DNA of 64,000 bases, taken from the NCBI GenBank assembly GCA_963837035.1, contig CAWIMH010000035.1:20319-84318 (forward strand). The letters run 5' to 3'. The notes under the pieces are model-generated. The model searched no databases. It was given only the letters and a program-made list of their open reading frames with translations, and was not told the DNA's origin. A program made the translations under genes and the position numbers. Origin of the DNA: an uncultured Pseudomonadota bacterium (GTDB lineage: Bacteria; Desulfobacterota; Binatia; Binatales; Binataceae). This document shows positions 1-29,605 of the stretch, one piece after another (within the stretch, counting starts at the first letter, position 1; every line of letters starts with the position of its first letter).

Positions 1-69
1 TCGCAGCGACGGTAAAGGGGAAACACTCACGCGTCCTGCCAAGAGCGAGTCGAAGCAACGATCGCCCGC

Positions 70-270
70 ATGGCGGCCGGGAAACCTGCCGGCGACGGCG
101 ACACCGACGACGAAGAGCGTTTCTGTACACATGCCGATAACTGCGTGGAAGAAATGACTCAGGCGAAAATGGCGCTGGACGCGGAGGAGCGTCACGGTCA
201 TTTGATTCGCGCGCTCGGCCACGCGGTGCACTGCATAAAGACGCACGAGAAGATGTCAAAAAAGAAGTAG
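70..270 (+). CDS. hypothetical small Cys/His-rich protein (66 aa)
   Basis: ORF with ATG start; no recognisable homology; first of several small Cys/His-containing ORFs at the left end. Confidence 0.25.
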   Translation: MAAGKPAGDGDTDDEERFCTHADNCVEEMTQAKMALDAEERHGHLIRALGHAVHCIKTHEKMSKKK

Positions 271-475
271 GTCGGTTGCCTTCCTCGCTTCACGACCTTG
301 GGGCAGCGTGCAGCAGTGCCACGCGGCTGAATCCCGCAGGCTCTCCGGGGATCAGCCAGCTCCCGCCTAATTTGATCGAGCTGGCTCGCGTGTACCTGTA
401 ATACGCGCGAAAAAGGGGACACGGAGGAATTGCTCACCTCCGCCTCCCCGCCACACTCCATATCCGGGGTGAACT

Positions 476-703
476 ATGGCTTTTGATGATTACGGACTAG
501 CGAATGGGCTCGACGGCGCCGAGCAAAGCCGGCGCTGCGTCGTTTGTAAAAAGGATCGTGCCTTCAACTGGCCGATCTCGAAAGTCTGCTCCGGCTGCGC
601 CGCGAAAAAACCGGAATCAAAGGCATCAGCCCCGGCTGAGAAACCATTCAAGCCTCATCGCCGCGCCGTGTTTTTTCCCGGTGAAGGAAGACGATCGCTA
701 TGA
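476..703 (+). CDS. small zinc-ribbon protein (CxxC...CxxC), hypothetical
   Basis: 75-aa ORF with CVVCKK...W...CSGCAAK motif (C-x2-C-x13-C-x2-C with conserved Trp); stop overlaps next ORF start (ATGA). Confidence 0.4.
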   Translation: MAFDDYGLANGLDGAEQSRRCVVCKKDRAFNWPISKVCSGCAAKKPESKASAPAEKPFKPHRRAVFFPGEGRRSL

Positions 704-1236
704 AACGCGCACTTGTTTGTAAACGCGGCCACGACGCTTGGAAGTTTGACGGCTGCGGCGTGCGCTATTGCGGAGAGTGTCGGCGGATTCGAGTCGAAAG
801 ATATACTGCCTCCTCCGCTCGAAGCGTACCGCGTGAAGTGATTCGCCAGCGTCGGATTGATCTGCTGAAAAAGTTCGGCTGGTTTTTGCATGCTAACGAT
901 GGTGACGACGCCGCCCATATGACGCCCAATTTAGAGTTGGCGCTGAATGGCAGCCGCGCGCACTGGGGCGACTTCATGCGCAAGATGCGCCTAAGAATGT
1001 GCGCCGACCGTTGCGAGCGCTGCACGATTTTAAAGTCGACCTTCAGTGATTTTCCAAACTTCAGATGCTGGGATGTTTCGTGCCCGGTGCGGACGACCGC
1101 CGTCTCCGAAGAAGATCTCGACCGCATCGCCTATGAGTTTGGAAATTTCGGTGCGCTAATCGCGGGCTTGACCTCGATCTCCGAAACGATAGGCGATGGT
1201 AACCGCAGGACACCGGGAGGGCACGCTCGTGTCTAA
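700..1236 (+). CDS. Cys-rich zinc-finger protein, possibly HNH-like nuclease fold; hypothetical
   Basis: 178-aa ORF; N-terminal CKRGHDAW...CGVRYCGEC zinc-ribbon paralogous to neighbours; later AHMTP...NGS...AHW...CADRCERC resembles an HNH arrangement (H-x2-P ... N ... H + CxxC) but does not match the canonical spacing. Confidence 0.4.
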   Translation: MKRALVCKRGHDAWKFDGCGVRYCGECRRIRVERYTASSARSVPREVIRQRRIDLLKKFGWFLHANDGDDAAHMTPNLELALNGSRAHWGDFMRKMRLRMCADRCERCTILKSTFSDFPNFRCWDVSCPVRTTAVSEEDLDRIAYEFGNFGALIAGLTSISETIGDGNRRTPGGHARV

Positions 1237-1384
1237 TCTATGTAAACGGTGCGGCAGCGATGATTGGACTATGCGGGGCACTGGCCACCATCCCTTTTGT
1301 AGCGAGTGCGCTCGGCAACGCTCGCGGAAAGCCTATCGATTGAAGCATCCCGACGCTAAAGTATCGGCCGGCACGGCGCAGTAG
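1196..1384 (+). CDS. small zinc-ribbon protein (CKRCG...W...CSECA), hypothetical
   Basis: 62-aa ORF; same C-x2-C-x(11-14)-C-x2-C + Trp pattern as 476..703 and the N-terminus of 700..1236; an internal GTG at 1229 would give a 51-aa product. Confidence 0.35.
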   Translation: MVTAGHREGTLVSNLCKRCGSDDWTMRGTGHHPFCSECARQRSRKAYRLKHPDAKVSAGTAQ

Positions 1385-1938
1385 ATATGGCGGTGAACTA
1401 TGTGGGCATGGACATAATAACTGGCGCACCGATTCCTCGCCGACTCAAATCGTCCGCAAATGTATCGACTGCGGCAGCGGTGCGCGCAAGCACGGGCGCG
1501 CGCGCGGGCTCCGGCCCGGTGAACTGATCGCGGAAGCGGAAGCACCGCTACCGCTCGATCGAAAGGCGCTGCTGCGAAAGATCTGGGCTGAAATTCAAAT
1601 GGATCGCCATGCCCCGGACGAATAAGCCGGGGCTATAGGCACCCCGGCTATTATTTACGATGAGGACGCCGCGCTACTTCAGGCCAATCTTCTTCGGCGG
1701 TGGGCTCGTCGATCCGAGCGGCGTTGTCGGATAGTGCTTCGACGATCGGATCGACCGCCGTGCGTTTGCCAAATAGACCCCTGATTGACCTTCCTTCTCG
1801 GCTCCTTCGAGTTTCGCAATCTAGCGCATTGCACTGAAGCTGTTGCTTCTTTTGTGCGATTTAGCTTATTCGGAAGTATCGAGTCCGTGTTTAGCCGCCC
1901 GCTCAGAGAAGCGACCAAAATTGGTAACGCTCTTACGT

Positions 1939-2403
1939 TTAATGCGACCTTGCCGGAGTCCCTCGACAATGGAACTGATCAAATCTCGCTCGCCAATGTT
2001 CCCCAAACTTTTGCTGCTCTCGAAAAATGCGCCCGGCCAACTCAACTAAGCGTTGCGCACTGATTTCGGAAATGTCCCGATGAATTCCGTTGACCTCAGG
2101 ATCGGCTGTGTTCCCAGGAATGCTAACTAGTCTGAACCCCAAGTCGAACACCACCGATTCCGGAAAAAGGACGTAATCAAAGCGATCGTACTTGCCTCGT
2201 GCGATTACCAGCGCGGCAGCTATCCGCAACAGGTTCGTGTTGTCATCCTTTTCGACCGAGTAGACTGAAATCGTATTGTTCGAAGTTGTGAGATCGCTCA
2301 AAGGCTCTGCTCCAAATTCCCCTGCTCGCAGCCATGGATGGGGATCGGGGTTATATAGATCCCAGGCCAGCAAGTGATTGAGTTTTCGCAGCAGAAGAGG
2401 CAC
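1939..2403 (-). CDS. hypothetical protein (154 aa), last gene of low-GC minus-strand cluster
   Basis: ORF in a roughly 50% GC island; no recognisable domain. Confidence 0.3.
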   Translation of the reverse strand: MPLLLRKLNHLLAWDLYNPDPHPWLRAGEFGAEPLSDLTTSNNTISVYSVEKDDNTNLLRIAAALVIARGKYDRFDYVLFPESVVFDLGFRLVSIPGNTADPEVNGIHRDISEISAQRLVELAGRIFREQQKFGEHWRARFDQFHCRGTPARSH

Positions 2404-2512
2404 TGCTTAGGAACGAAGTTCAGCGAGAGAGTTATTAAGAGCCATTTTGCAAAGCGGCCGCTTTTCAAGGTTAACAGCGCGCTCCAAAAATAGAATGGCG
2501 CGCTTATCGCCC

Positions 2513-2875
2513 TTAGCAGGCCTCAAACCCAAGCCGGCTGCTTCTCTCACTGATTGGCGACGGATGAGTCAGGCATCTGCGAAGGAGATGCATCCTGGCT
2601 TCTTGAGTGTTTGGGTCACTCATTCTTCCGAGTTCACGCAGCCCCTCCCCAAGGATGGTGATGCTGCTTCCCTCACCAAAACAGAATCTCTCGAATACTT
2701 TTATTCCGATTCCACGGTATCTCAGGATGAACTTCCGAAATTCGTCCGCGAATGCCATAGCACCATCAGTTTCCAGGCTCATCGGAAAGCAGAGCAGCGG
2801 CGGCACAAAAATCCTCTCTAGCAAACTCCAATAGGGTGTCTTCATCCGGGGACGTAGAAGCCTCTGCCAATTCAA
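2513..2875 (-). CDS. hypothetical protein (about 120 aa; TTG start, possibly shorter from ATG 2758)
   Basis: minus-strand ORF overlapping the 3' end of 2766..3140 in another frame; may be a separate gene or the frameshifted continuation of the upstream ORF. Confidence 0.25.
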   Translation of the reverse strand: MNWQRLLRPRMKTPYWSLLERIFVPPLLCFPMSLETDGAMAFADEFRKFILRYRGIGIKVFERFCFGEGSSITILGEGLRELGRMSDPNTQEARMHLLRRCLTHPSPISERSSRLGFEAC

Positions 2876-3140
2876 CTCTCTTCAGCATTTCCGTTAATGA
2901 ACGCTCTACAATCGCATGGAACTCCTCCCACGGCAGAACGGGTTGGAACATATGAGTCACAAAGTATGTACTCTCCAGCCCTGAAGGAACGCTATACCAA
3001 GGTTGAAAAGATTTATAAGCCGAAATCTGGTTGCGTAAGAAAACATTGGCATATTGGCCGTTGATTGACCCAGTGAAAAAGGGAGGCGAGGAAATGCTCG
3101 ATACGTTGAGCGCAAAAGAATTTGAGCATGCAGCAAACAT
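2766..3140 (-). CDS. hypothetical protein (124 aa)
   Basis: minus-strand ORF in the low-GC island, protein-like composition; no SD recognised. Confidence 0.3.
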   Translation of the reverse strand: MFAACSNSFALNVSSISSPPFFTGSINGQYANVFLRNQISAYKSFQPWYSVPSGLESTYFVTHMFQPVLPWEEFHAIVERSLTEMLKRVELAEASTSPDEDTLLEFAREDFCAAAALLSDEPGN

Positions 3141-3203
3141 GGCGGCGCGATTAGAACAACATCAGCCCAGAGTTGCTGACTCGCATTTATTTTGGAGAGC
3201 GAC

Positions 3204-3362
3204 TCATGGACGGCTGATAGCCTTGCTGACCGTGCCAACCCATTCGGCATTAAGAATAGCGGTGTGAGAAGCCGCCTCGGCGAACTTGAGTGCGGACTTT
3301 TCGTAAGCCTCTGTAACCGCTTCGGCGAGTTTGAGTGGAGACGGTTTGTTAGTCTCTGTCAC
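3204..3362 (-). CDS. small repeat-containing protein (52 aa), translationally coupled to upstream gene
   Basis: GTG start overlaps the TGA stop of 3359..4126 (GTGA); the product MTETNKPSPLKLAEAVTEAYEKSALKFAEAASHTAILNAEWVGTVSKAISRP contains an internal peptide repeat encoded by an imperfect tandem DNA repeat; it is below the ORF-track length cutoff. Confidence 0.3.
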   Translation of the reverse strand: MTETNKPSPLKLAEAVTEAYEKSALKFAEAASHTAILNAEWVGTVSKAISRP

Positions 3363-4126
3363 TTGACGTCACCTTGTTCGGCAATTTGGTTGGCTAGTTC
3401 AATAAATTCGCCAAACACTTTGGGCATATTCTCAGCCAGAATTTCGCCTTGATAATCCTGAGCGGTATTTATGTCGAGTTCGAGCCTACAGACAGGCCTC
3501 GCCGAAGGTGAAACAGATGCAACCTGTCTCGGAATTTGAGGGTTGGCGACTGTCAACGACATGAGAGTTGGTTGGACAACTCCCCAGGTAGACAAACGGT
3601 TGATTCTAAGCCCTTCCATTCCAGGTACGTGAGACAATCTCGGTCGGTTTATGCGGTACATAAAATCAAAGGATTCACCGACATCCAACGTAACCGAGGC
3701 TAGGTAATGTTGGAGTACTTCATGCCCCTTGGCCACGGTTTCTACGGGCTGAATCAGCTCGACTCCCAAGGCCAATCGAGTCGCTGGCGGCGAGATTGGG
3801 AACCAGCTTTCCAACAGGTTGGAGAACGTTTCCATGGTTCCTTGATGCGGGCCAAGTGTTGCGAGATCTTCCTCTTCCGAATCGACTTTATCTATCGCTT
3901 GCCAAATCCAATCTATGCGGTCCGGTAAAGAAACGAGGTACAGTTTCCCGGCATGAAAATTGGCTTCCTGTCGCAAGAAGCCTCGCGGACGCTGTCTGAT
4001 CACAGACTCTGCCTCGGAACCGATAACCTTTTGCCACCAGGATTCTGTTTCCTGGACCACTACGGCCGGAAAAGTCGAAAGCCTTATGTGTCGCGTGAGC
4101 CAGGGCAAGTCGTCATCCTCCGTCAC
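3359..4126 (-). CDS. hypothetical protein (255 aa), first gene of low-GC minus-strand operon
   Basis: long clean ORF with ATG start, about 50% GC against about 63% in the surroundings; no recognisable catalytic motif. Confidence 0.5.
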   Translation of the reverse strand: MTEDDDLPWLTRHIRLSTFPAVVVQETESWWQKVIGSEAESVIRQRPRGFLRQEANFHAGKLYLVSLPDRIDWIWQAIDKVDSEEEDLATLGPHQGTMETFSNLLESWFPISPPATRLALGVELIQPVETVAKGHEVLQHYLASVTLDVGESFDFMYRINRPRLSHVPGMEGLRINRLSTWGVVQPTLMSLTVANPQIPRQVASVSPSARPVCRLELDINTAQDYQGEILAENMPKVFGEFIELANQIAEQGDVK

Positions 4127-4195
4127 TATTCGAAAAATCCACAGGTTCTTGGCAGAGGCTGGTTACTAACAACATAACCTCTAGCACGCCTTTGA

Positions 4196-4207
4196 GACAA
4201 CGTACGT
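4196..4207. promoter_or_regulatory. 12-bp perfect palindrome CAACGTACGTTG about 70 bp upstream of the minus-strand operon start (candidate operator)
   Basis: perfect dyad symmetry seen directly in the sequence; its position relative to the start codon at 4126 is consistent with a promoter or operator. Confidence 0.3.
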
Positions 4208-4814
4208 TGTAATGGACTCAACCCCAATTCGCGAGACCTTGGATACTCTTCTTCAGTGCGCCGAAGGTTCAAGCGAGGTACCAGGGTGATTGAGAAAATG
4301 CGCCAAAAACCCAGAATTTTCAAAGAGAATTAGCGGCGCGCCTGATTACGGGCTTGCCCGGCCGTTCCACGGTCAGACGTCCCTCGGCTTCCGCGTCGAC
4401 GCTAGAAACAACGCTCAGGTCGGGATACAGGCCGTTTAGGCCGAATCGTGATTCGGGGCGGAAAAATGTACTCCTGTGGCACAAAACGAAAATAGGCCAA
4501 CCCTCACTAGGGAGCCGGCGACGGCCGGATCGCGGCTCCGACCGCTGAATTGCTCGCGCTGCCGCAGTTGTCCGTACATCCCGAAATCGCTTGGGCGGAC
4601 GTTCTCGATCGCCTGCAGCCGTCATAAATTGAATATCGCGAGCGTGTGACCACTGCGCGAGAATGGACTCTGGTTGAGCGGGTATCTTCGAGCGACTGCT
4701 TACGTTTGGTAATGTTCGGGCCGTAGCTCTCGGTCGGACGGGAGTTGTCGCAAAATTATGTCCTCTCCAACCCAAAAACATCGCCTGGGTCGAGCTAAAT
4801 AGGAGAACCCCTGT

Positions 4815-6107
4815 ATGAAGCGAAGCCGAGTCACTCCCGTATGCCTTTTGGTCGGCACTGTCGTGTTCATTTTTACGTTGCAAAGAAGCGATTCCTTAGC
4901 AAAAACGCCAACGCCGAATCGCTCACATGCTGGTGTCGAGGCAACTAACATTCCGCCCTCAACTCAAATGACCTCCTCCTCAAATGCTTCGAGCGCGGAA
5001 TCTCCGGAACAGGTGCGTCGCATAGCGCGTGAAGAGGTCGAGCTGCATTTGCACGGAATAGGGGAGGCCACGATTGCCGCCGTCATCGAGGGGGCACGCG
5101 AAAATGAGCACACTATGTCTTATGTTTCTTGGGTTGCCTCGATATGGATTGCTCTGTTCACACTTATCGTCGGGGCAGCAGGCGCGTTTCTCTATGGCGA
5201 GGTAGGCATTCTCAAAAAAGCAAAAGAAGAGGCGCAAGCAGCAAGTGAAACTTCAAAAGCCCTGCTGGCTCAGGCAGTTAAGGCTAAGGACGAGGCCGAG
5301 GCGTCAAGCTCGAAAGTGCACGCGGCCGAGGAGGACGCCAAGTTAGCTGCGAGCCGCCTTAGAGCATTCGATGAGGCCAGCAAAAATGCTTTGGCCGATA
5401 TTGATAACTATCACAAGAATTTGCCGTCGGTAGAATCGCCGACCGTCCTAGGGAGCCAGCCCGAACTGCCGCCTATCGACCACGTCATGCAGATGGAAGA
5501 GGCCGATATCCTAACGGTTCTGGGCGAGAAAATCCGACCGCAACCGCCCAAACAACTCGCGCTCGCGTTTCTCTCCTTGGGAAAATACTGGAGACAAATC
5601 GAGAACTATCCTCGTGCACTCACACGGTATCAGAAGGCGGCAACTCTCGACCCAGAATCGTGGGAGCCGCTGGAAGGCTTAGCGCGAGTGGCGACGGAAC
5701 GCGCGCTTGAGGAGGGGCTCACTCCCGAAGCAAGAGAAAGACTATTGTCTCAGGCAAAGATATGGGCAGAAGCCGCCTTCGGAATAGACGACGAGCAACC
5801 AAAAACCGTTTACGACTTGGGCCGCATCGCCCACGTCCGAGGTCATTTTGGAGCCGCAATCGAATTTTATAAACGAGCGCAGGTTCTGGACATTAAGCAG
5901 GAGCGTTTAGAGAATATTTACAACCTAGCCTGCCTTTATGCGCATGACGTAGTGGACTTCGAGAGCGCCATTCAAGAGCTTGAGAAATTCAAAGGACGCG
6001 ACAAAGTGCGAGAACTAGTTGCGAAGGATAGCGATTTCGACGGGTTGAGGGCCGACCCGCAATTTGCCGCTAGACTCTCAGCATTATGGCCTACGAACGG
6101 TCCTTGA
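4815..6107 (+). CDS. membrane-anchored coiled-coil / TPR-like repeat protein, hypothetical
   Basis: 430-aa ORF with a good RBS (AGGAGA 9 nt upstream of ATG). It has an N-terminal hydrophobic anchor, a second TM segment (WVASIWIALFTLIVGAAGAFLYG), an Ala/Glu/Lys-rich coiled-coil and C-terminal TPR-like helical repeats. Confidence 0.6.
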   Translation: MKRSRVTPVCLLVGTVVFIFTLQRSDSLAKTPTPNRSHAGVEATNIPPSTQMTSSSNASSAESPEQVRRIAREEVELHLHGIGEATIAAVIEGARENEHTMSYVSWVASIWIALFTLIVGAAGAFLYGEVGILKKAKEEAQAASETSKALLAQAVKAKDEAEASSSKVHAAEEDAKLAASRLRAFDEASKNALADIDNYHKNLPSVESPTVLGSQPELPPIDHVMQMEEADILTVLGEKIRPQPPKQLALAFLSLGKYWRQIENYPRALTRYQKAATLDPESWEPLEGLARVATERALEEGLTPEARERLLSQAKIWAEAAFGIDDEQPKTVYDLGRIAHVRGHFGAAIEFYKRAQVLDIKQERLENIYNLACLYAHDVVDFESAIQELEKFKGRDKVRELVAKDSDFDGLRADPQFAARLSALWPTNGP

Positions 6108-6137
6108 GCGTGAATGAACGGTCCTTGAGCGTGAATG
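6096..6137. repeat. perfect 21-bp tandem duplication (AACGGTCCTTGAGCGTGAATG x2) spanning the stop codon of the TPR protein gene
   Basis: two identical adjacent 21-mers counted directly in the sequence. Confidence 0.85.
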
Positions 6138-6729
6138 ACTGTCGCAAGTTCTTCATTCCTGACTCTCCTGACGACAAATCTAAGCACTATTCCGCACTTC
6201 TGGTCAACGCCAGCAACGTTCCCGCCTCCCTGCTCGGCGGAGCACAATACTACCATCCTATCGGTCCTAGAGCCATCCGGGCCGACGCTGAACCTCTGTC
6301 AAATTTGACAGAAGTGGCCTGCCACGAACCCGAGGGGCTGCTTTCAATTCCGGGGCCCGGAAACGATGCCGTGGCCATTTACGAAAGCCTTGATCTCGCC
6401 CCCGATTTCATTGGATCACGCCGGGCAGACCCCGGCATCGGCACTAGACTAGCTCCGCCCATCCCTTCCGGGCGCTCCGAATCCGGGGCTGCTTTCTCGT
6501 CTGAACCCGCCCGCGCTTGCCCGTATACCGCCCTGTGTTGGCTCCTTCCGACCGGGGTAGGATCGTCGCCCGTCTGTTTGCTTAGGCCCCGCCTCGTCCT
6601 ATAAATTGCCCGGTTGGCCCCGTATGCTGCTCACTGCCAACAGACCGCCAACACGCTCCCTGCTACCAGCCTGGCGGTCGATGGCTGAAACTCGAATAAG
6701 TGGCCAGTTTACGAAGGTTTTTCGGCGCC

Positions 6730-6806
6730 GGGTCAGTAGCTCTAATTGGCAGAGCATCGGACTCCAAATCCGGGGGCTGCAGGTTCGAATCCTGCCTGAC
6801 CCGCCA
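6730..6806 (+). tRNA. trnW: tRNA-Trp (anticodon CCA)
   Basis: 77-nt cloverleaf: acceptor GGGTCAG/CTGACCC, D-arm GCTC-TAATTGGC-AGAGC, anticodon stem TCGGA/TCCGG with loop CTCCAAA, T-arm GCAGG-TTCGAAT-CCTGC, discriminator G and encoded CCA; lies at the conserved position just upstream of secE. Confidence 0.9.
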
Positions 6807-7762: not shown

Positions 7763-8188
7763 ATGGCAAAAAAAGTTACGGGACAGATTAAGCTGCAGAT
7801 TCCCGCGGGCGCAGCGAATCCGTCGCCGCCGGTTGGACCCGCGCTGGGCCAGCGCGGCGTCAATATCATGGAGTTCTGCAAGGCATTCAACGCGCAGACG
7901 CAGAATATGCAGGGATTGACGATCCCGGTAATCGTCACGGTTTATGCCGACCGGTCGTTTACTTTTGTTACCAAGAGTCCGCCGGCGTCAGTCCTGCTGC
8001 TCAAAGCCGCGGGAATCGAGAAGGGCTCTCCGGTCCCGAACAAAAACAAGGTCGGCAAGGTTTCGAAGAAGCAGGTTGAAGAGATCGCAAAAACCAAGGT
8101 CAAGGACCTGACGGCCAGCACGCTCGACGCCGCGATCCGCACGGTGGAGGGCACGGCGCGTTCGATGGGACTGGACGTTACCGAATAG
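7763..8188 (+). CDS. rplK: 50S ribosomal protein L11
   Basis: [44 protein letters not shown] is the L11 signature. Confidence 0.95.
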
Positions 8189-8201
8189 GGAAGCAGCGGC
8201 C

Positions 8202-28904: not shown

Positions 28905-29605
28905 TGGCCGACGAGAAAAAAAGCGAAAAGGCGCAGCCGAAGGCACCGCGCGAACGCGGTGCCAAAAAAGGACCACGCGCCGAGAGCGCCGCGCCGGTCG
29001 CGGAAGCGAAGCCGCGCGAGCCCGAGCCCAAGCTCCCGGCGCGGCTGCGCCTGCGCTACGAGCAGGAAATTGTGCCCGAGCTGATGCGCGAGCTCAAGAT
29101 CGAAAATCGGATGCGCGTGCCGCGACTGCAAAAGATCGTCATCAATATGGCGCTGGGCGAGGCCCGCGAGAATGCCAAGATACTCGATGCGGCCGCGGAG
29201 GAATTGCGCCAGATCACCGGGCAAAAACCGGTCATTACCCGGGCGCGCAAGGCGATCTCAAATTTCAAGCTGCGCGAGGGCATGCCGATCGGTGTGATGG
29301 TGACGTTGCGGCGCGAGCGGATGTGGGAGTTCTTCGATCGGATGGTGAACGTCGCGATGCCACGCGTGCGCGACTTTCGGGGGGTCGCAGACAAGTCTTT
29401 CGACGGACGCGGCAACTACTCGATGGGTCTGCGCGAACATACGATTTTCCCTGAACTGAATCTCGACAAAGTCGAAAAAGTAAAGGGCATGACGATTTCG
29501 ATCACCACGACGGCGCACAGCGATTTCGAGGGGCAAACCCTGTTGAAGGCGCTCGGGATGCCGTTCCGGGGCGCTGGCGGCGATAGTGCCGTCCGTGCCG
29601 CGTAA
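28901..29605 (+). CDS. rplE: 50S ribosomal protein L5, with a roughly 47-aa Lys/Ala/Pro/Glu-rich N-terminal extension
   Basis: core [12 protein letters not shown]...[15 protein letters not shown] is L5; no alternative start codon sits between the annotated ATG and the conserved core, so the extension appears genuine. Confidence 0.9.

Follow-up and report, generated by a model that had tools for sequence, protein, structure and literature searches.

Small zinc-ribbon genes in a putative integrated element beside tRNA-Trp in an uncultured Binataceae bacterium

The DNA analysed here, which we call the window, is a 64-kb stretch of bacterial chromosome from an uncultured member of the Binataceae (contig CAWIMH010000035.1), and near its left end it carries a group of small + strand genes whose products contain paired cysteines. 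In the original prediction, made from the letters of the sequence without database searches, these genes were described as a tandem array of paralogous zinc-ribbon genes of the sort carried by phages or plasmids, the middle one having a possible HNH-like nuclease core. The three open reading frames (ORFs) on which that description was built, at 476-703, 700-1236 and 1196-1384, were confirmed on the + strand together with their quoted peptides. ORF1 (476..703) encodes 75 amino acids (aa), and its stop codon overlaps the start of ORF2 by 4 nt, in the sequence ATGA. ORF2 (700..1236) encodes 178 aa, made up of an N-terminal ribbon of a type that we refer to as CKRGH, a helical linker and a C-terminal domain with four Cys. 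ORF3 encodes a stand-alone ribbon protein, read on the + strand either from a GTG codon (1229..1384, 51 aa) or from an ATG codon (1196..1384, 62 aa). Its start is more probably the GTG at 1229 than the ATG at 1196, because the sequence GGGAGGG lies 7 nt upstream of the GTG (1215-1221), because the GTG overlaps the ORF2 stop (by 8 nt), and because the gene caller picked the same GTG in L003, a sister assembly of the region that is described below.

A fourth frame (ORF4; 1344..1625, + strand) is open and overlaps the end of ORF3 over 1344-1384. It lacks a canonical start, i.e., no ATG, GTG or TTG is found before a late Met. The frame encodes ...GGELCGHGHNNWRTDSSPTQIVRKCIDCGSGARKHG..., with the ribbon-like segment CGHGHNNW...RKCIDC (CGHGH..W..CIDC, at 1401-1472) and a basic/helical tail. 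Directly 3' of the ORF4-frame stop there is a candidate intrinsic terminator (1626..1656, + strand), in which a GC-rich hairpin is followed by the U-tract UAUUAUUU; the fold of 1620-1662 has an energy of -16.8 kcal/mol (z -2.8). A consensus terminator scan did not find the 1626-1656 hairpin, probably because its loop is 9 nt. Upstream of these genes, ORF0 (70..270, + strand) encodes a Cys/His-rich protein of 66 aa. Taken together, the arrangement of starts and stops argues for a compact, translationally coupled + strand operon, which would be the distal end of the operon of a mobile element.

ORF1, the N-terminal part of ORF2 (ORF2-N), ORF3 and ORF4 each contain a pair of zinc knuckles (C-x2-3-[CH] and C-x2-C) separated by 8-20 residues. 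Counted over all six frames of the 64 kb, strict motifs (C-x2-C-x(8-20)-C-x2-C) occur six times, two of them in this cluster, and relaxed motifs (C-x(2-3)-[CH]...C-x2-C) occur nine times, four of them at 536-1401; by our own calculation, about 0.13 relaxed motifs would be expected in a span of 0.9 kb. The clustering of zinc knuckles is beyond chance. Several of the other relaxed motifs were read by eye as parts of ordinary zinc proteins, e.g., ribosomal protein S14 and the adenylate kinase lid, while one further motif lies in an unassigned minus-strand frame and the ninth is at 29073.

Paralogy of the copies was assessed against shuffled sequences in which every Cys was fixed in place. Under this test ORF2-N and ORF3 resembled each other (z 5.6, p 2.5e-4), the similarity of ORF2-N to ORF4 was marginal (z 3.6, p 0.005), ORF3 and ORF4 showed none (p 0.65), and neither did ORF1 with any other copy (p > 0.2). 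A further and better copy of the ribbon, M0, was found in L003 at approximately 8090-8190, at the end of the gene L003 7784-8239 (...KRCKRGHADWHLRPDGWRVCRSCERERIRRIY), and it scored z 8.1 with ORF2-N and z 6.0 with ORF3. The M0 gene lies about 600 bp before the start of the window and encodes 151 aa with an unknown N-terminal domain; the protein has no match in Pfam, PHROG or NCBIfam. The motif of ORF2-N (718..780, + strand) consists of C7-KRG-H11...C19...C24-x2-C27 and is of the CKRGH..W..CxxC type, not C-x2-C. The proposal that all three ORFs carry one and the same C-x2-C module therefore held for the relationship between ORF2-N and ORF3 and failed for ORF1, as well as for the exact form of the ORF2 motif. 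By pairwise alignment and by the profile check given below, paralogy extends to ORF2-N, ORF3 and M0, is marginal for ORF4 and is not seen for ORF1. These comparisons indicate that ORF2-N, ORF3 and M0 share a CKRGH..W..CxxC ribbon that has been locally multiplied, and that ORF1 would be unrelated to this module beyond the spacing of its Cys.

Relatives of the ribbon in viral contigs were found with a degenerate DNA pattern for CKRGHxxW...CxxC in IMG/VR. The pattern matched 27 loci, and in 26 of the 27 the variable gap keeps the reading frame, compared to one third expected by chance. About 19 of the loci lie in real ORFs with conservation that the pattern did not force, namely G-x-R before the CxxC and a basic tail after it. 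In these contigs WhiB-like proteins (Pfam Whib, 1e-6) and HNH_3 endonucleases (4e-8 and 5e-10) carry the ribbon C-terminally, proteins with a nuclease-like end DHIVP...N...N (phrog_1035 'endonuclease VII', 1e-14) carry it N-terminally, and in proteins of 46-88 aa it stands alone; three contigs (L024, L025 and L015) encode proteins with two or more ribbons. The ribbon maps inside two PHROGs named 'HNH endonuclease' (1492 and 826) and to the small PHROGs 23777, 1081 and 18310, and neither Pfam nor NCBIfam has a model for it. A literature search on 'CKRGH' found nothing, nor did tblastn with a 36-aa consensus of the module. By eye, a tandem of two ribbon genes that overlap by 4 nt was seen in viral locus L018 (31-510 and 507-755), and such ribbon arrays therefore occur elsewhere; in L018 and in L028/L033, stand-alone ribbon genes were seen by eye among replication/early-type genes, including primase-polymerase-like giants and MazG-like and WhiB-like genes.

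We built a hidden Markov model (HMM) of the module from 19 independent viral copies and ran it on the window, on L004 (a contig with a related gene pair) and on the left part of L003, translated in six frames into 2164 segments. M0 (E 7e-11), ORF2 (E 1.2e-7) and ORF3 (E 4e-5) stood clear of the best noise (E 0.2). The score of ORF3 is an independent confirmation, because ORF3 was not used in the design of the pattern. The same model was not significant for ORF1 (E 0.32) or ORF4 (E 1.1). The best PHROG for ORF4 was phrog_23777 at E 0.051, a family that genuine viral modules match at 2e-9, so that ORF4 may be said to resemble the CKRGH module marginally.

With phmmer against 1.84 billion representative proteins, only four distant homologues of ORF2 were found (P0010-P0013, E 3e-9 to 4e-5). 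In the alignment of ORF2 with these four (alignment A1), the invariant residues are W89, C105, C108, C123, W124, C128 and R131, followed by a V..L.R.A helix. The conserved C-terminal domain of ORF2 (1012..1092, + strand) thus has the form C105-x2-C108...C123-W124-x3-C128-P-x-R131. Like ORF2, the homologues carry this CxxC...CWxxxCPxR domain and then a VSExELDR helix, and they occur in a mobile-element context with a primase. Unlike ORF2, each orthologue has an N-terminal zinc motif of another type: CKRGH in the window protein, CxxC...CxxC in P0012 and P0013, and C..KPC...YCC..H in L036. Because the N-terminal motif varies among orthologues yet matches M0 and ORF3 of its own element, it would appear to be interchangeable, which points to module swapping together with local duplication.

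Other searches with these proteins returned little. The profile searches against Pfam, HNH and DUF families that the original prediction had recommended gave nothing significant for the ORFs, and the same was true of scans of the four ORFs and their neighbours with Pfam, NCBIfam, PHROGs and PADLOC. A profile search of the PDB with ORF2 found no match; word-indexed homologue searches with ORF2, ORF3 and ORF4 were empty; a scan of viral contigs with the ORF2 alignment found no relative; and a metagenome scan with the same alignment found only L006, which is the same element as L004. Scanning genome contigs with ORF2 gave only L001 and L002, two chance matches of 25 residues. With tblastn against phages and plasmids, only matches at E ~0.5-0.7 were seen; one 'endonuclease' among the tblastn matches was an R.SnaBI-type restriction enzyme (E 0.5) and was dismissed. 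A ZAS anti-sigma motif noticed by eye in ORF2 (C101-x3-C105-x2-C108) was ruled out, C101 not being conserved in alignment A1.

ORF1 is a C-x2-C-x13-C-x2-C protein with the conserved tail RRxV[FY][FL]PxE, and the 'EGR' that follows this tail coincides with the Shine-Dalgarno sequence of ORF2. The order of the gene pair was assessed on the window, L004 and L036, the contigs of P0010 and P0013 being too short or without DNA. P0012 is encoded on L004 and P0011 on L035/L036. Orthologues of ORF1 lie directly upstream of the ORF2-like gene in both cases (L004 2662-2913 and L036 2715-2954), and the 4-nt overlap between the two genes is kept at 700-703 of the window, 2910-2913 of L004 and 2951-2954 of L036. 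The three ORF1-like proteins (alignment A3) are 35-37% identical, with R19, C21, C24, C38, C41, R62, R63, V65 and P68 invariant. Compared with hhalign, the ORF1 and ORF2 families gave a probability of 0.6%. In L004 and L036 the pair has no ORF3 or ORF4 downstream of it. L004 also encodes a DUF3854 primase-like giant protein and an HTH_17 protein, and the gene after the primase is common to L003 and L004 (E 3e-7). Upstream of the pair, ORF0 is weakly similar to a Cys/His-rich helical region of L036 1256-2203 (E 0.036), which is itself homologous to L004 1719-2306 (E 1e-3), upstream of the ORF1/ORF2-like pair there; ORF0 may thus belong to a conserved three-gene arrangement with ORF1 and ORF2. 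From their occurrence in three unrelated contigs, ORF1 and ORF2 are judged to be a conserved pair; the pair is rare and uncharacterised.

The setting of these genes was examined through composition and through L003. The first ~6.7 kb of the window have a GC content of 0.50-0.58, compared to ~0.61 in the neighbouring core genes, which here are tRNA-Trp (6730-6806) and then nusG, rplA, rpoB, rpoC, fusA and tuf. The exact ORF2 protein is present in the public collection on a contig of 662 kb, and its cluster also holds two fragments from L003, a metagenome contig from ENA of 15,545 bp that represents a sister assembly of the same element and extends the region leftwards. L003 aligns to window positions 1-6723 at 97.8% identity, with 84 mismatches and 52 gap openings, many of them in homopolymers, and L003 ends at window position 6723. 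All seven L003 substitutions within ORF2 are non-synonymous. L003 looks error-prone in a manner typical of an unpolished long-read assembly, and its gene calls are fragmented (ORF2 and a TPR gene are each in two pieces) because the assembly is noisy.

The left part of L003 supplies the genes expected of mobile DNA by the original prediction. A tyrosine integrase (L003 192-1400; Phage_integrase 6e-25, phrog_1 3e-61, Arm-DNA-bind_3) lies at one end of the element, and the left part also encodes a D5_N primase-helicase (D5_N/primase 1e-16; phrog_1156 2e-42) and, in family scans, fragments of an MT-A70 methyltransferase. A 23-nt direct repeat (21/23 match) occurs at L003 126-148 and at window 6630-6652, its copies being 15,326 nt apart. 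The left copy directly precedes the integrase gene and the right copy, a candidate attR (6630..6652, + strand), lies 78 nt upstream of tRNA-Trp, so that the repeats enclose the whole gene set from the integrase to the TPR cargo, ~15.3 kb. Because they share the region with an integrase, a primase and MT-A70 fragments and lie between the candidate att repeats, the zinc-ribbon ORFs are read as cargo of an integrated element of ~15.3 kb, prophage-like or satellite-like, with its own replication module and an atypical composition. The suggestion of phage- or plasmid-type cargo was thereby borne out. In the ORFs scanned from the window island and from L003 no HNH domain was found, though a fragmented gene could be hidden in the noisy L003.

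Other features of the island lie to the right of the operon. An ORF on the minus strand (1939-2403) matches phrog_10743, of unknown function, at E 4e-9, and the segment 2000-4000 has the lowest GC content of the island (0.50) and several minus-strand ORFs. The ORF at 3359-4126 (255 aa) had no match in any family library scanned. The last large gene of the element (4815-6107, + strand) encodes a protein of 430 aa with C-terminal TPR repeats; its middle part is coiled-coil-like and rich in Ala, Glu and Lys, and the protein has a weak PADLOC match to LeoBC (E 0.0036). A perfect 21-nt tandem duplication, GAACGGTCCTTGAGCGTGAAT twice, is present at window 6095-6136 (L003 14910-14951), where none is expected by chance, and it spans the junction between the end of the TPR gene and the start of an ORF at 6086-6604.

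The closest published concept that we found is that of the phage zinc-ribbon proteins described by Xu & Gupta (Nucleic Acids Res 2013, PMC3592412). In that work, additional zinc-ribbon domains are frequent on phage HNH nickases, as are stand-alone zinc-ribbon proteins encoded next to them, and both were suggested, without a test there, to be regulators or specificity subunits (PMC3592412). The ribbons are alike in being short, of CxxC/CxxH type, carried by phages or prophages, and placed N- or C-terminal to HNH enzymes or encoded as separate small proteins. A further likeness lies in the relatives of the ORF2-N/ORF3 module in viral contigs, which occur as fusions with HNH_3 and fall within PHROGs labelled 'HNH endonuclease'. 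The likeness of the family found here (CKRGH..W..G.R.CxxC.R) to the ribbons of that paper is one of description. Unlike Group 4 of Xu & Gupta, in which the zinc-ribbon protein adjoins an HNH endonuclease gene, the element studied here has no HNH gene that we could find. Phage WhiB-like regulators (IMG/VR L009, L010, L013 and L034) offer a second comparison: they have the same C-terminal CKRGH ribbon with a basic tail, although the window proteins have no WhiB domain. Because these regulators carry the same ribbon and tail, the analogy suggests that the CKRGH ribbon may work as a DNA-contacting appendage of a transcription factor. As for the element as a whole, P4-like satellites and small integrase-plus-primase elements are ~11-15 kb long, with a terminal tyrosine integrase, a D5_N-type primase-helicase, many small ORFs and variable cargo. 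The element resembles P4-like satellites in its size, integrase, primase-helicase, small ORFs and cargo region, and is unlike them in that psu, sid, delta and cos were not identified and in having its candidate att site upstream of, and not inside, the tRNA gene.

In our reading, for which we have moderate confidence, the ORFs encode small zinc-binding, non-catalytic proteins from an operon of the ~15.3-kb primase-encoding integrated element, and their role would most likely be that of DNA-binding regulatory or accessory proteins. The proteins would bind zinc and nucleic acid and have no catalytic domain; the translationally coupled ORF1 and ORF2 probably act together as a complex. ORF2 would combine a family-specific CxxC...CWxxxCPxR domain with an interchangeable N-terminal ribbon, and the CKRGH-type ribbon would have been multiplied locally, in ORF2-N, in ORF3, in the upstream M0 gene and probably in the ORF4 frame. 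The ribbons could then give the DNA recognition by which transcription or replication of the element is regulated. Several observations weigh against this reading. ORF3 and ORF4 are without detectable whole-protein homologues; the AlphaFold model of ORF2 is poor (pLDDT 57) and fold searches were empty; codon-position GC (GC1/GC2/GC3) fails to separate the frames here and is flat for ORF3; the att repeat is short, with a 15-nt exact repeat in 15 kb estimated to arise by chance about 10% of the time; and the element yielded no enzyme partner, HNH or otherwise. In addition, a fusion of ORF3 with ORF4 may be an artefact of the error-prone L003.

Two alternatives concern what ORF1 and ORF2 do. The idea first proposed, in which ORF2 would be a diverged HNH (His-Me finger) nuclease flanked by zinc knuckles, was drawn from the residues AHM...NGS...AHW...CADRCERC, which are indeed present in the protein. 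Elsewhere, fusions of the ORF2-N type of ribbon with HNH_3 or HNH enzymes are frequent, and two of the ORF2 homologues gave weak matches to phrog_1271 'HNH endonuclease' (best E 0.006), which we suspect to stem from their N-terminal ribbons. Against this, H73 is in an insertion unique to the window protein and absent from 4/4 homologues, N83 is replaced by P, G, A and A and H88 by K, E, D and D, and alignment A1 shows the stretch between the Cys pairs of the C-terminal domain to be without any conserved His, Asn or Asp. Furthermore, ORF2 has no HNH match in Pfam, NCBIfam or PHROG at E <= 1, its comparison by hhalign with ribbon-plus-HNH proteins gave a probability of 4.8%, and the proposed HNH segment is predicted, with low confidence, to be helical. 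Because H73, N83 and H88 are not conserved, the HNH core is refuted, and on these alignments ORF2 would not be an HNH enzyme; the nuclease reading now has almost no claim to be correct. What would survive of it is a kernel of truth, in that the type of ribbon at the N-terminus of ORF2 appears to accompany HNH enzymes in other phages. A role of ORF1 and ORF2 as a toxin-antitoxin system, or in defence or anti-defence, instead of in regulation is also improbable, if less so: they are a two-gene coupled cassette on mobile elements, beside low-GC cargo, but PADLOC had no match for any ORF of the region, ORF1 and ORF2 contain no toxin-like domain, and both are Cys-rich and basic, as is usual for nucleic-acid binders.

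The remaining alternatives concern ORF3 and the ORF4 frame, and here the small zinc-protein reading can be refined in a way to which we give a little under an even chance. ORF3 and the ORF4 frame would be one gene of ~131 aa with two ribbons, ORF4 being the 3' half of the ancestral gene, separated from ORF3 by a 1-nt indel near 1364; the inserted base, T1364, would be either a pseudogenising mutation or an assembly error. L003 is without T1364, and the gene call there runs continuously from the ORF3 GTG through the ORF4 ribbon (VSNLCKRCG...AKVRPARRSRYGGELCGHGHNNW). The startless overlap of the ORF4 frame with the end of ORF3, the proteins with two or more ribbons in the three viral contigs, and the position of the terminator-like hairpin after the ORF4-frame stop all speak for such a fusion, but the gap openings and non-synonymous substitutions of L003 (52 in 6.7 kb and 7/7, respectively) speak against it, as do the non-significant HMM score of the ORF4 ribbon and our estimate that a random deletion would fall within the 38-nt ORF3/ORF4 overlap with a probability of ~0.2. 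The fusion is the leading reading and is not proven. It does bear on the fourth, degenerate copy of the original prediction, which is frame-broken and without a start as described, while the ATG at 1387 is not supported as the origin of a frameshift, it being simpler to take the frame as a continuation of ORF3, as in L003. An unlikely reading is that only ORF1 and ORF2 are genes, with ORF3 and ORF4 being frames left open by chance in GC-rich DNA, their Cys pairs a coincidence; the lack of whole-protein homologues and the flat codon-position GC of ORF3 are consistent with it, and by our own calculation a 94-codon open frame has a chance of ~3.5% per frame at this composition. On the other side stand the match of ORF3 to an HMM from independent viral sequences, its z of 5.6-6.0 against ORF2-N and M0 with Cys positions fixed, its Shine-Dalgarno sequence, the overlap of its start with the stop of ORF2, and the clustering of zinc-knuckle motifs. 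Finally, programmed frameshifting (+1 out of ORF3, or -1 after a start at ATG 1387) or initiation at a non-canonical codon might produce ORF4, given that the frames overlap at 1344-1384 and that the ORF4 frame ends at the terminator-like hairpin; this is very improbable, as 1344-1400 contains no X XXY YYZ slippery heptamer, that region forms no stable structure (fold z +1.1), no Shine-Dalgarno sequence precedes ATG 1387, and no conserved relatives show that the split between ORF3 and ORF4 is maintained.

The cargo found here is of an ordinary kind for a mobile element, now correctly delimited, and nothing in the analysis challenges current understanding. What is new is modest: a recurrent viral zinc-ribbon module that has no model in Pfam or NCBIfam, and the rare, conserved ORF1/ORF2 cassette. 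Tentatively, and with more doubt than belief, ORF1 and ORF2 could be seen as a new and rare cassette of two zinc proteins belonging to integrative elements with a primase, in which the CxxC...CWxxxCPxR domain is joined to a swappable N-terminal ribbon that sets DNA specificity and was drawn from the pool of phage homing endonucleases and WhiB proteins; M0, ORF2-N, ORF3 and ORF4 would in that case capture module shuffling in progress inside a single element. The main value lies in annotation, in that a false HNH lead has been removed and the ORFs have been placed on a defined element beside tRNA-Trp. Since the ribbon is now absorbed into 'HNH endonuclease' PHROGs, stand-alone ribbon proteins of this kind could be misnamed nucleases.

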